From Alteromonadaceae bacterium (lineage in GTDB: Bacteria > Pseudomonadota > Gammaproteobacteria > Enterobacterales > Alteromonadaceae), in the NCBI GenBank assembly GCA_014872785.1, contig WKFJ01000056.1, positions 82,794-114,793 on the forward strand: 32,000 nt of DNA, in the 5' to 3' direction. The stretch's first letter is position 1. Each line of letters begins with the position of its first letter. Positions 19,313-22,900 of this stretch are shown one piece after another. Made by a program: the position numbers and the translations under genes. The notes below the pieces were generated by a model that was not told where the DNA came from, did not search any database, and saw only the letters and a list, made by a program, of their open reading frames with translations.

Positions 19313-22300
19313 ATGTTTCAGTCTCAAAAAAATCAAACGAAATTCATGCCGGTGAGGTTGTCTCGGCTGTTATCAACGGCCATTCAACTCTCCAAAGTGG
19401 TGACGTTAACTACTGTCAGTCTTTTCGCGTCAGAAGGTATAGCAAGTCTTCAGTCAGATGCTCAATCCCCTTCTGAATGCGAGTCAGTGTTAGGAAAAAC
19501 TGAAGAACAAATCATCAATGGAATATCGAGTTTGCTACCCGAAAAAGGGCAAAGAATAGAACTGGCACCAGATAAGGACAGCTATGATGCGAGCACTCTA
19601 TCGCACCTCGGATGTGAGCTGGCGGAAGTAACAGTGCAACTGGAATTTACCGATGATATCGCCGCGAGTTTTCGCAATGAAATACAGACCACGATTAAGG
19701 CGCTTGACGGATTGTACGAAGACAAAGCCATTCTTGCGGGCAGGACTTCAGAATTAAAAGAAGAGCAACGGTTTTTGGCCGCGTTAAAAAAAGAGCATGA
19801 GCATTTAAAAACGTTCGAAGAAGGTAGGCTAAGTCGAGCCAACGCCAAAATAAATGCTGCTCGGGCAAACTATGAAGGTAACGGGCGAGGATATGCAGAA
19901 TATATCAACGCCTATATAAACGCCGGTATTGATAGCGTTTCTGAACACGTGGCGTCGACGTATCCCAAAGAGTTCAAAGAGCAGTATAAAGCCGGTTTGA
20001 TTACTACTGATGCCGTCTATGAAGCTTTTGATGTAGGCAGATTTCATTCTAGATTAGAGCATGAAACCGATCTACCAAACCCCAATGGCGATAACTATCA
20101 GGTTAACGAGGCGGAATTGAGAGCATTGATGCGCCAATTTAATAATCGATCCGCATTCCACTACGTCCTACCAGGTATTAAATACGATTATGTGTTGTTA
20201 AAAAATGGCCAGAACTATCGACTCTCGTTGAGATATGAAGATGGTCGTAATCCTTGGCTGTACCTTAATCGCGACATCCATAACAAACGTCACTTCAACG
20301 ACGTTCTGGCCTATCTTGAGGAGAAGGCAAAGAGGAAGATTTTAGCGTTTAATCTTCGGTCAAAATTATTTCGAAAAATGAAGGTGTTTCTCAATTCAGC
20401 GGTAAAAGTCGCTGGGCTGGAACTCACGATTTCAAGCGCAGAAGATTATTTAAGAAATGTTTATCCCACGCATGAGGAAAAATGGGTAGAGCGCTTACCT
20501 GACATCGATACTGAGATAAGTGAGCTGGAACATGCGCTGGCTGAGTTAGAAACACTCATTACACAGCACAACGAGCTGTTAACGCACATTGACTCTCAAT
20601 TGTCGCCTTATGAAAAGCTGGTTATAGCGTTCACTCGACTCCAATCGGATTTGTTAGCACACTACCACTTATTGACAGATAAATCCCTTGTGAGACAGAG
20701 CCACAGGCAAGATACGTATTCAATTTCGAATGAAATTGTCACCCTGCACTCAACTTTATCGGAATACACCTCTGCGATAGCCGACAGTGCGGTCATTTCA
20801 ATTCGATATCACGGATTAGGCTTTAGAGGTGAAAGGGAATTTGAATTCGACACCAGCGAACAAGCTCATCAGCAGTGGGATTCAGTGATTAGCAGGCTTA
20901 GCGCGCAATTCTCTGGATTTGAATTGTGGGAAGAAGTGCTGACTACTACAGATGAGACAATGCACACCAAACCAGGTTTTAGCTTTAAAATTTCGGCTTT
21001 GTATGGGCAAGAAGACTTAACAGCTACATACCCTGCAAAGGTTCAATTGCGGTATCGCATTGGGAATAGTACCCCGTATCCATTAGCAGATCCTATTACC
21101 GTTTATTCAGATGCGGACAAAGAAAACGCCAAGAAACATTTGATGACAGGGTTATTTGAGCTTGAGCCAATTTTGCACTTGGAGGGGCTTAATGCCGGAC
21201 GCAAAGTCATTTTCCCTGGGGAAGAGGAAGTGAAAACCATGGTTGGAGGGGCGATCAAACTATGGGAAGTAGACACCGACACTTACCTTGGGCAATGGAA
21301 GGTCAGTAACCTTGGTCGATTGCACTCCACCACGTCGGCTTATTACAATCCAAACAAGCTCGAACGGGATATGCTATTGGTGGTCAATAATTTTGCAGAT
21401 CGCATTGCGGTGGACACCCAAACAGCAAATGTCGTTGAGATGGGCGTTGATGATACCGCGTTTGTTAACAACGAAGCATTGGGCCGGATATCGGAACAGT
21501 TGAGCAGTGGTGTATCGCCGGCAGAGATTGATTTTAATAAAGCGCTTTATGAGTCGATAAACCAGGTTACCTTGGATCCAAGACAGACCATTATCTCTGC
21601 GACACAGACCAGCGCAAGAGTGGCGTCAGGATATACCAAAGGTTATGCCAAAGGAGTTGCTGACTCACTAGAGGCATTAAAGGACATGCCTCAAATGGCA
21701 CTGGGAATGGTCGAGGCGTTTAGCGAAGGTATGGACGCCAGCGTCGAGCTAAGTGGGGTAATTATCCTTTCGTTGTGGAATGATTATGTTCAAACCCAAG
21801 AATCAGAAAGTTTACTACAAGCGGCTCTGTCAATCGCTGAGACAAGAGGTGCCGATGTCCTCAACGAAATTCATGCTTTGCAACGAGGTTTAAGTGAGCT
21901 GGTGGAGAATGCGGCAACGACGCTTGCTGTGCTCGATAGGCTAGAACCAGAGACGAAAGAGCACTACAGCGGGTTCGTCCTCGGATACATTTCAGCTATA
22001 GCCAGTGAAGGCGCTGCAATCACCTATGCCGTTCGAAACGGTTCGTTGGTGGCTGACAAGCTGGTGGCCGGAGCCGCGGCGTTTGAGCAAACTATGGAGT
22101 TGCTGCGCACCCTGACACGAGTATCGGTGGATGTTTTTCAGCAACAAGGGTTCATCATGCAACCTGCTGATGTACCCGTTAAGTATCTCAATATGGCGGA
22201 TCGTGCAGAGTATGCTGACGAAGCATTGTCAGCTATTTTACTTAGGGCAAAAACCGTGGGGAACGATGGACTGGTGCGCCAGCGAGCTGAGAAGCTCAAT

Positions 22301-22900
22301 ACTTACCGAGCAATTGATGCTGAATACACAGATGTTGAACTGGTAGAGTTTTTTAAAGACCATGGTTATTCAATTAATCTTCATCAAATACAAGTGCTGA
22401 GAAAAGTGTCCATCTTACAAAAAGCGTCTTTCACCAAACGTTATAGCTCAAGGCATTACTTGGGTGAAATGATCCATCATCTGCGCACGGGAAAGCCGTT
22501 AACTGATTTTCAACGCTACACTATATCGAGGTTAGAAAAAACGGAAGTTGCAACGGTGCAGTACCACCACTTCTTTAGTCCAATCCACAAAGACTACTCG
22601 CCGAGAATGCAAAAACAGGTAGAAGCCCTCGGGCTTGATCTAGAAGGCAGTTGGAATATTCAGGCCGTTGCCGGGCATTTAGGTCGTCACTCTCCGGCGT
22701 ATCACGAAATGATGAATCGCGAATTGGGCAGGCTTCTTAAGCAGGCCAATGGTGATCGGGATCAGTTTCTGTCTTCGGTGAAACAACTGCAGCTTAACGT
22801 GGTCAAGTATCCAGCTCGTTATCACTTTAATATCAAACAGTGCGAACTCGATGCGTGTCAACCTCAGTCGCTTATCTTACAAGAAATGTTCAGCTATTGA
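19313..22900 (+). CDS. large (~1195 aa) coiled-coil protein with C-terminal HNH/EndoVII-superfamily (AHH-like) nuclease-toxin signature
   Basis: GAGGA RBS 8 nt before ATG 19313. N-terminal hydrophobic segment VVTLTTVSLFA. The C-terminus QYHHFFSPIH...QVEALGLDLEGSWNIQAVAGHLGRHSPAYHEMMNRELGRLL fits the AHH-family pattern (xHH ... gid...N...lp..H.GrH..Y...v...L). Confidence 0.7.
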   Translation: MFQSQKNQTKFMPVRLSRLLSTAIQLSKVVTLTTVSLFASEGIASLQSDAQSPSECESVLGKTEEQIINGISSLLPEKGQRIELAPDKDSYDASTLSHLGCELAEVTVQLEFTDDIAASFRNEIQTTIKALDGLYEDKAILAGRTSELKEEQRFLAALKKEHEHLKTFEEGRLSRANAKINAARANYEGNGRGYAEYINAYINAGIDSVSEHVASTYPKEFKEQYKAGLITTDAVYEAFDVGRFHSRLEHETDLPNPNGDNYQVNEAELRALMRQFNNRSAFHYVLPGIKYDYVLLKNGQNYRLSLRYEDGRNPWLYLNRDIHNKRHFNDVLAYLEEKAKRKILAFNLRSKLFRKMKVFLNSAVKVAGLELTISSAEDYLRNVYPTHEEKWVERLPDIDTEISELEHALAELETLITQHNELLTHIDSQLSPYEKLVIAFTRLQSDLLAHYHLLTDKSLVRQSHRQDTYSISNEIVTLHSTLSEYTSAIADSAVISIRYHGLGFRGEREFEFDTSEQAHQQWDSVISRLSAQFSGFELWEEVLTTTDETMHTKPGFSFKISALYGQEDLTATYPAKVQLRYRIGNSTPYPLADPITVYSDADKENAKKHLMTGLFELEPILHLEGLNAGRKVIFPGEEEVKTMVGGAIKLWEVDTDTYLGQWKVSNLGRLHSTTSAYYNPNKLERDMLLVVNNFADRIAVDTQTANVVEMGVDDTAFVNNEALGRISEQLSSGVSPAEIDFNKALYESINQVTLDPRQTIISATQTSARVASGYTKGYAKGVADSLEALKDMPQMALGMVEAFSEGMDASVELSGVIILSLWNDYVQTQESESLLQAALSIAETRGADVLNEIHALQRGLSELVENAATTLAVLDRLEPETKEHYSGFVLGYISAIASEGAAITYAVRNGSLVADKLVAGAAAFEQTMELLRTLTRVSVDVFQQQGFIMQPADVPVKYLNMADRAEYADEALSAILLRAKTVGNDGLVRQRAEKLNTYRAIDAEYTDVELVEFFKDHGYSINLHQIQVLRKVSILQKASFTKRYSSRHYLGEMIHHLRTGKPLTDFQRYTISRLEKTEVATVQYHHFFSPIHKDYSPRMQKQVEALGLDLEGSWNIQAVAGHLGRHSPAYHEMMNRELGRLLKQANGDRDQFLSSVKQLQLNVVKYPARYHFNIKQCELDACQPQSLILQEMFSY

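Follow-up and report, generated by a model that had tools for sequence, protein, structure and literature searches.

Contig WKFJ01000056.1 of an Alteromonadaceae bacterium (NCBI GenBank assembly GCA_014872785.1) carries, in the 32,000-nucleotide stretch from position 82,794 to position 114,793 that was analyzed here (the window; G+C content 43%; positions below count from its first nucleotide), a gene for a protein of 1195 amino acids (aa) that ends in a nuclease domain of the AHH family and whose remaining ~1030 residues appear, from the databases searched, to be nearly orphan. The initial annotation of this stretch, made from the DNA letters and a list of open reading frames (ORFs), had placed the gene at 19313–22900, exactly where the ORF list has it, on the plus strand. 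The parts of the gene and its immediate boundary are as follows, with the evidence for each in parentheses.

19313–22900 including the stop codon, plus strand: complete gene for the 1195-aa protein, made up of signal peptide, orphan body, AHH nuclease and Cys-containing tail (ORF list, AGAGGA motif, nr record, homolog)
19313–19444, plus strand: probable Sec signal peptide, aa 1–44 (sequence and hydropathy)
19445–22492, plus strand: orphan N-terminal body, aa 45–1060, mixed alpha/beta, with three short heptad-like stretches and Cys56/Cys101 (searches, heptad score)
22547–22786, plus strand: AHH-family His-Me finger (HNH/EndoVII) nuclease domain, aa 1079–1158 (PF14412, alignment, AlphaFold2 model)
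22562–22570, plus strand: YHH motif, Y1084-H1085-H1086, at the family's "AHH" position (alignment, AlphaFold2 model)
22787–22897, plus strand: C-terminal tail, aa 1159–1195, with Cys1177/Cys1182 (common to the homolog P0006 only, missing from other AHH proteins)
22921–22950, no strand assigned: GC-rich hairpin, possible two-way terminator (in the 59-bp gap between convergent genes)

An AGAGGA motif lies 9 nucleotides 5' of the ATG start at 19313; a longer form starting at a GTG at 19259 is possible, and the public record has the 1195-aa form, with an identical protein in NCBI nr, encoded on a 114.8-kb contig. The same locus was recovered from an independent sequencing run as a 13-kb contig with 99.96% identity over the locus and a single protein change (S52Y). 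The gene is monocistronic and sits in a variable region with orphan genes.

The nuclease domain and its orphan carrier

Only one Pfam family is found in the 1195-aa protein, even at E ≤ 1, and it is AHH (PF14412), which matches aa 1079–1158 over profile positions 14–103 of 111 with 31.2 bits against a cut-off of 22.3. A profile search of this kind had been proposed as a check when the C-terminus was first described as an AHH-type HNH/EndoVII module, and that description is borne out by the Pfam match, by the retention of every residue that is invariant in the closest AHH subfamily and by a predicted beta-(insert)-beta-alpha fold in which the histidine pair ends the first strand. The YHH motif reported at codons 22562–22570 is exactly there, followed by GLDLEGSWNIQAVAGHLGRHSPAYHEMMNRELGRLL, i.e., GLDLEGSWN...HLGRHSPAYHEMM, and H1085 and H1086 are the predicted catalytic, metal-binding histidines.

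An exhaustive phmmer/HMMER search of 1.84 billion representative proteins, with tblastn against plasmids in addition, yielded 235 further matches; among the best 150 of these AHH matches, which are the ones listed, all but one are restricted to the C-terminal region (aa ~1025–1173), and identity is 30–41% to the AHH domains of Rhs, Hint and other toxins. Among the 44 sequences retrieved, those with a recognizable architecture were polymorphic toxins of the classical kind (Rhs/YD-repeat proteins, Hint-domain proteins and short C-terminal cassettes). In an alignment of 36 sequences (the window protein, its homolog P0006 and 34 AHH domains), all invariant columns are kept in the window protein (H1085, H1086, N1115, G1124, H1126 and Y1130), as are the nearly invariant W1114, H1122, R1125 and H1131. 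Within this subfamily V, D, M, N, T, E, K, L, I, Q and W are all found immediately before the histidine pair, so that a YHH motif is no anomaly. Measured against the conserved Tox-AHH residues as published, namely [AG]HH, N, H, H and Y (Zhang et al., 2012; PMC3482391), the protein has H1085, H1086, N1115, H1122, H1126, Y1130 and H1131, with Y instead of A or G at the first motif position.

An AlphaFold2 (AF2) model of aa 1060–1195, built on the AHH alignment, has a mean predicted local distance difference test (pLDDT) score of 83.7 and places a strand at 1082–1086 that ends in the HH pair, an inserted helix, a strand at 1116–1120 following N1115 and a helix at 1128–1145. This beta-insert-beta-alpha topology is the arrangement published for V2a of Agrobacterium tumefaciens, an AHH DNase shown by experiment to be toxic, in which HH is placed at the C-terminal end of strand 1 and in which the H385A change abolishes both toxicity and plasmid degradation (PMC10902643). 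Membership of the C-terminus in the AHH family is well supported by these sequence comparisons, and its last ~110 residues apparently make up a His-Me finger DNase of the AHH type that is catalytically intact.

The body that precedes this domain is another matter. No match to aa 1–1078 was found in Pfam, NCBIfam, PADLOC, PHROGs or PDB sequences, and the HMMER search of representative proteins gave, among the matches listed, one full-length relative: P0006, a protein of 1219 aa represented only in a small number of short assemblies from public sequencing runs, which is collinear over aa 52–1181 of the window protein with 22–23% identity (E 2e-42) and which also ends in an AHH-like domain (PF14412 score 21.4, just under the cut-off). 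In a word-indexed search of 5.8 billion proteins, the full protein and a profile of the two sequences each matched only themselves; scans of genome collections with the giant protein and of viral and metagenome contigs with the two-sequence alignment gave no match. The label of a giant coiled-coil protein, which the initial annotation had used, proved overstated: a crude heptad score flags only aa ~129–168, 397–431 and 833–878 (~3% of windows of that score, against 0.6% in shuffles), and the secondary structure of a full-length AF2 model, built on the two-sequence alignment and unusable as a fold (pLDDT 36), mixes long helices with beta-rich segments.

P0006 also tells us something about the history of the nuclease. 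Both proteins carry, after the AHH domain, a tail of ~35 residues with shared Y, N-I, E, D and C positions, where the other 34 AHH domains have gaps, and both have an A-G insertion before H1122 that is not found in those 34. Since the two homologs share these derived features, the nuclease and its tail have descended together with the body; a swap of C-terminal cassettes between the two was considered and rejected because of the shared tail features. Both domains are outliers, with 35% (window protein) and 27% (P0006) identity to the canonical AHH group, whose members have 47% identity among themselves.

Export, secretion markers and immunity genes

The one hydrophobic segment that the initial annotation had recorded is indeed present; it reads, however, as a probable Sec signal peptide, and the accompanying statement that the protein has no trafficking domain is not supported, since the segment looks like a Sec signal peptide of the cleavable type, and P0006 has one too. 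In the window protein, a basic n-region (K6, K10, R15, R18, K28) is followed by an 11-residue h-region, VVTLTTVSLFA, and then by small residues (SEGIA), with likely cleavage, as read from the sequence, after A39 or A44. The 11-residue core has a Kyte-Doolittle (KD) hydropathy of 1.99 and a 19-residue span only 1.33, which is too low for a membrane anchor to be likely. The N-terminus of P0006 is a textbook signal peptide (MSRVRTK-LHTYALLSIGSWVFTPFVFA/DIS), and the two members have in common a basic n-region, a hydrophobic core of 11–15 residues and a cleavage site with small residues. They also share Cys56 and Cys101 as invariant positions, and the mature region of each has an even number of cysteines (4 and 6 in the two members), as expected for disulfide-bonded exported proteins. 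We consider the N-terminal hydrophobic segment to be probably a Sec trafficking signal. Two variants were rejected: an extended signal peptide of the type V secretion system (T5SS) kind, as there is no two-partner secretion (TPS) or barrel domain, and a lipoprotein, as the motif search gave no lipobox.

Pfam scans of the window covered selected ORFs, namely every non-overlapped one of 100 aa or more and the small minus-strand ones at 13.9–17.4 kb. In the protein itself, Pfam at E ≤ 1 gave no RHS, PAAR, VgrG, LXG or hemagglutinin domain (Haemagg_act and Fil_haemagg were unmatched), and motif searches gave no MIX, PAAR, YD or lipobox motif, in agreement with the initial reading of the body as free of RHS, PAAR, VgrG, MIX, LXG and filamentous-hemagglutinin features. 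Markers of type VI (T6SS), type V and type VII (T7SS) secretion systems were found neither in the protein nor in the selected ORFs; VgrG, Hcp, PAAR, adaptor and MIX features were absent across the 32 kb (Pfam scans of selected ORFs and motif search), and the window has no ShlB/POTRA-type neighbor.

The same holds for immunity. A convergent gene for a 357-aa protein follows after 59 bp (22960–24033 in the ORF list, minus strand, its stop facing the stop at 22900), as had been reported, and the claim that an adjacent co-directional immunity gene is missing stands, with no match to a nuclease-immunity family nearby: Imm11/DUF1629, Imm-PA2201, SUKH, SuFu and ankyrin families were not found by Pfam among the selected ORFs of the window. 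Nor did tblastn of the window and of the homolog's locus (L001) detect two proteins, putatively immunity proteins, that are encoded downstream of a Bacillus AHH gene, or, with the AHH domain as query, a second AHH cassette. Typical relatives have a co-directional gene directly after the AHH gene, so that its absence here is a real departure; in a Campylobacter relative on a T6SS plasmid, for example, a co-directional DUF1629 (Imm11) gene lies directly downstream, and the AHH gene adjoins a VgrG-family gene.

The homolog's locus gives a similar picture. L001 shares no gene with the window except the giant protein, and the 798 bp downstream of the P0006 gene hold no ORF of more than 53 aa, so that neither family member has a co-directional ORF immediately downstream. 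The contigs from three sequencing runs (L001, 1–14458; L006; L007) all end ~800 bp downstream of the P0006 gene, which suggests a repeat or insertion sequence (IS) at that point. Upstream of the P0006 gene lie a divergent gene for a 654-aa TPR protein, an IS3-type transposase pair and a gene for a 1493-aa orphan.

It had been suggested that the immunity function might lie in the convergent gene or in the array of small ORFs upstream. This is not supported: apart from one Rap1a-like protein there is no immunity-family match, the convergent gene is itself orphan, and neither it nor the array recurs at the homolog's locus. The convergent protein is predicted to be cytoplasmic, lacks a signal peptide and is acidic (pI 4.75); it has no homolog in the word-indexed 5.8 billion proteins or, by tblastn, in plasmids, no domain match and no counterpart at the homolog's locus. 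It is the last gene of a tight seven-gene minus-strand operon (22960–27483) of unannotatable proteins, six of the seven with N-terminal signal or transmembrane segments. The Rap1a-like protein, which has a signal peptide (16509–16979, minus strand; Pfam 32.3 bits against a cut-off of 27.7), is the sole immunity-like match among the selected ORFs and lies 2.3 kb upstream of the AHH gene. The Rap1a fold is tied to immunity against T6SS cell-wall amidase effectors, not against nucleases. Its gene is found within a stretch (13000–18000) of low G+C content (37–39%) packed with small minus-strand ORFs for membrane proteins, which could be an orphan-immunity or horizontally acquired islet.

These neighbors bear on whether the protein could instead be a cargo effector of a T6SS or another contact-dependent system, its N-terminus being no signal peptide and its immunity being either unlinked or provided by the convergent 357-aa protein. 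Many T6SS cargo effectors have unrecognizable N-termini and genes outside T6SS clusters. The Rap1a-like gene, with its T6SS-immunity fold, would fit such a setting, as would a convergent protein that, like many nuclease inhibitors, is acidic and without a signal peptide; the AHH toxins that have been characterized experimentally, V2a and Txe2, are T6SS effectors (PMC10902643). We nevertheless regard this explanation as quite improbable, given that the Pfam scans of selected ORFs across the 32 kb and the motif search gave no VgrG, Hcp, PAAR, adaptor or MIX, that a signal-peptide-like N-terminus is kept in P0006 and that the convergent gene is placed in a way atypical of immunity genes, is orphan, has no immunity-family match and is not found at the homolog's locus.

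A second alternative is a soluble bacteriocin of the colicin or S-pyocin kind, with a receptor-binding and translocation body, a C-terminal DNase and an immunity gene lost or displaced. The outline is suggestive, as a long, partly helical body precedes a DNase of the HNH superfamily and the gene is monocistronic in a variable region with orphan genes. To our knowledge, however, nuclease bacteriocins have no Sec signal peptide and always have a tightly linked downstream immunity gene, since they fold in the cytoplasm; with no Pfam pyocin or colicin domain in the protein and no lysis gene nearby, a bacteriocin seems very unlikely.

Further features of the surroundings concern the gene's control and its neighborhood. 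In the gap between the convergent genes, the hairpin at 22921–22950 folds as RNA with −18 kcal/mol (z −1.87, with 7 of 200 shuffles folding equally well, which is weak evidence); it lacks a good T-run and was not called by the consensus terminator scan, and the consensus promoter and terminator scan was uninformative for the locus. A 10-bp unit (GTTGTTTGCA) occurs in ~4.3 tandem copies with helical periodicity (19170–19216) some 100 bp before the start of the AHH gene, between this gene and a divergent gene for a 277-aa protein; this array, which may be a regulator-binding array, was not seen upstream of the homolog in L001. NCBIfam, PADLOC and PHROGs gave nothing for the immediate neighbors of the AHH gene. 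Farther away, a reprolysin-like (M12B) metalloprotease with three Calx-beta domains, probably a secreted protease, is encoded at 871–2871 (plus strand), and a 545-aa orphan with a lipoprotein signal (LVGC lipobox), a Ser-rich stretch and no family match at 11525–13162 (plus strand). A tus gene at 27704–28648 (plus strand; Pfam Ter, 97 bits) presumably places the window in the replication-terminus region of a gammaproteobacterial chromosome, and matches to an E. coli-type Ter core near tus were no more frequent than expected by chance. A scan of genome collections with Tus gave no match.

One more neighbor, a DUF2971 protein (10131–11063, plus strand), matches the PADLOC candidate anti-phage family PDC-S31 (E 3e-44). 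Large sensor-plus-nuclease defense proteins are common. With a candidate defense gene 8 kb upstream, the AHH protein might therefore be a cytoplasmic or membrane-anchored protein that cuts the cell's own or invading DNA, such as an anti-phage effector, yet the AHH protein itself has no PADLOC match and no NTPase or other sensor domain in Pfam, has a signal-peptide-like N-terminus and conserved Cys pairs, and carries a domain that is not of a typical defense nuclease family (PMC3482391), all of which leaves a role in defense with hardly any likelihood.

A possible exported nuclease toxin

The most likely reading of the protein is that of an exported nuclease toxin whose carrier had not been described before. 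More specifically, we favor, with a probability of about 0.5, a Sec-exported AHH nuclease on a lineage-specific scaffold that folds and acts only outside the cytoplasm of the producer. The precursor would cross the inner membrane unfolded and lose its signal peptide; folding would take place outside the cytoplasm, with formation of the disulfides Cys56-Cys101 and Cys1177-Cys1182; the ~1030-residue lineage-specific body would serve as carrier for release, surface attachment or target binding; and the AHH domain would cut DNA on encounter, most likely within a target cell that is not kin. An active nuclease that never folds beside the producer's chromosome would not call for a tightly linked immunity gene during production: the producer would be protected by export instead of by a linked immunity gene, and export of an unfolded precursor would explain why neither family member has one. 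It has been noted that toxins without cognate immunity are common where hosts, and not conspecifics, are the targets, and that AHH is confined for the most part to toxin systems, in contrast to the NucA and classical HNH clades, which serve in environmental DNA degradation (Zhang et al., 2012; PMC3482391); this restriction makes a weapon likelier than a scavenging enzyme.

Much of the same evidence would suit a secreted or periplasmic housekeeping DNase, one that obtains phosphorus or nitrogen, remodels extracellular DNA in biofilms or forms a barrier to foreign DNA, with the body anchoring it to surface or matrix and no cytoplasm being targeted. The signal peptide and the cysteines fit equally well, an immunity gene is seen beside neither family member, and a nuclease-tail module inherited with its body suits a dedicated enzyme better than a polymorphic toxin. 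That such an enzyme should carry AHH, a domain largely confined to toxin systems (PMC3482391), is harder to accept: the closest AHH domains are, in the sequences retrieved, all on Rhs, Hint or other toxin architectures, a scavenging nuclease would be expected to be widespread in relatives, whereas here there is one relative among 1.84 billion representatives, and a carrier of 1000 residues is large for scavenging. We therefore judge this explanation unlikely. It is likewise possible, if doubtful, that the orphan body is a new self-contained delivery scaffold that brings the nuclease into a foreign bacterial or eukaryotic cell without any known marker or cognate immunity; were that true, it would represent a new trafficking class for nucleases of the polymorphic-toxin type, with self-protection by compartmentalization or target specificity.

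Several points weigh against the Sec-exported toxin that we favor. In its putative signal peptide the h-region is interrupted by K28 and Leu stands at −3 of the A39 site, which leaves export no more than plausible. An interbacterial toxin normally still needs immunity against sister cells, and the proposal includes no route across the outer membrane or the target envelope. Structure prediction, which the initial annotation had put forward as a check, gave a C-terminal model of pLDDT 83.7 with beta-insert-beta-alpha topology, although Foldseek found no significant match to that model in the PDB and, in BFVD, only weak ones, among them proteins of Bathycoccus viruses, a lineage in which AHH domains have been reported (Zhang et al., 2012; PMC3482391); as the AHH-domain profile matched no solved structure among PDB sequences either, the fold assignment rests on Pfam and the literature. 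Polymorphism, in the sense of one body with different C-terminal toxins, was not seen, as both known members carry AHH plus tail, and a family of two members in the searched data makes arguments from conservation thin. Finally, an immunity gene could have been lost from the P0006 locus at the probable downstream repeat or IS.

If export and activity hold, the implications go beyond this locus. Almost all known AHH nucleases are payloads of Rhs, T6SS, contact-dependent inhibition (CDI) and T7SS systems, each paired with an immunity gene; the carriers of His-Me finger toxins would gain a new scaffold of ~1000 residues, and nature would offer an example of a toxin-type DNase kept without linked immunity, which bears both on self-intoxication and on the targeting of non-kin or eukaryotic cells. 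Genome-mining pipelines that demand an immunity gene next to the toxin gene, or a marker already known at the N-terminus, would then be seen to miss such loci. Should the protein turn out to be merely a secreted DNase, the gain would be a modest one in annotation.

Comparison with known systems

Nuclease colicins and S-type pyocins (ColE7/E9, pyocin S1/S2) resemble the window protein in joining a long carrier to a C-terminal His-Me finger DNase, but they lack a signal peptide, their linked immunity gene is obligatory and their receptor and translocation domains are recognizable in Pfam; the window protein, with its probable signal peptide, differs on each of these points. Similar in the proposed mode of action are Xds and Dns of Vibrio and ExeM and ExeS of Shewanella, large Sec-secreted nucleases that have no immunity gene and act on DNA outside the cytoplasm, as we propose here. 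These nucleases, however, use catalytic domains of the EEP, EndA or NucA type and are conserved across genera, whereas the window protein has a toxin-type AHH domain and a single known relative.

With the Tox-AHH toxins (PF14412), including V2a of A. tumefaciens 1D1609, Txe2 of Pseudomonas plecoglossicida and the Campylobacter T6SS-plasmid proteins, the window protein shares the HH, N, H, H and Y residues and the position of the domain at the extreme C-terminus of a long protein. Unlike them, it has no Rhs, PAAR, VgrG, Hint, LXG or TPS carrier and its gene no downstream Imm11, Imm-PA2201 or other immunity gene, and its domain differs in the motif-initial Y, the extra Cys-containing tail and its outlier identity.

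There is a parallel in overall plan with the Sec or "type II secretion system (T2SS)" polymorphic toxins, such as MafB of Neisseria, which have the order that the window protein probably follows: signal peptide, lineage-restricted N-terminal domain (MAFB-N in MafB) and C-terminal nuclease (PMC3482391). Here, by contrast, the body is ~1000 residues long and unrelated to MAFB-N, APD1/2 or other named domains, and the locus lacks a MafA-like upstream partner, an immunity gene, cassette polymorphism and orphan cassettes. In Table 1 of Zhang et al. (2012; PMC3482391) a signal peptide is the signature of the "T2SS/Sec-dependent" class, and T2SS is among the export routes given for Tox-AHH; a signal peptide, a lineage-specific domain and a C-terminal toxin make up the layout of that class, so that the architecture seen here falls within a class already described. 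The initial annotation's suggestion of a new delivery architecture thus stands for the carrier and not for the layout. The family of the catalytic module and the order of signal peptide, lineage-specific domain and toxin were already known; what is new here is the ~1030-residue carrier, a family of two members in the searched data, together with the shared Cys-containing tail and the consistent lack of linked immunity.

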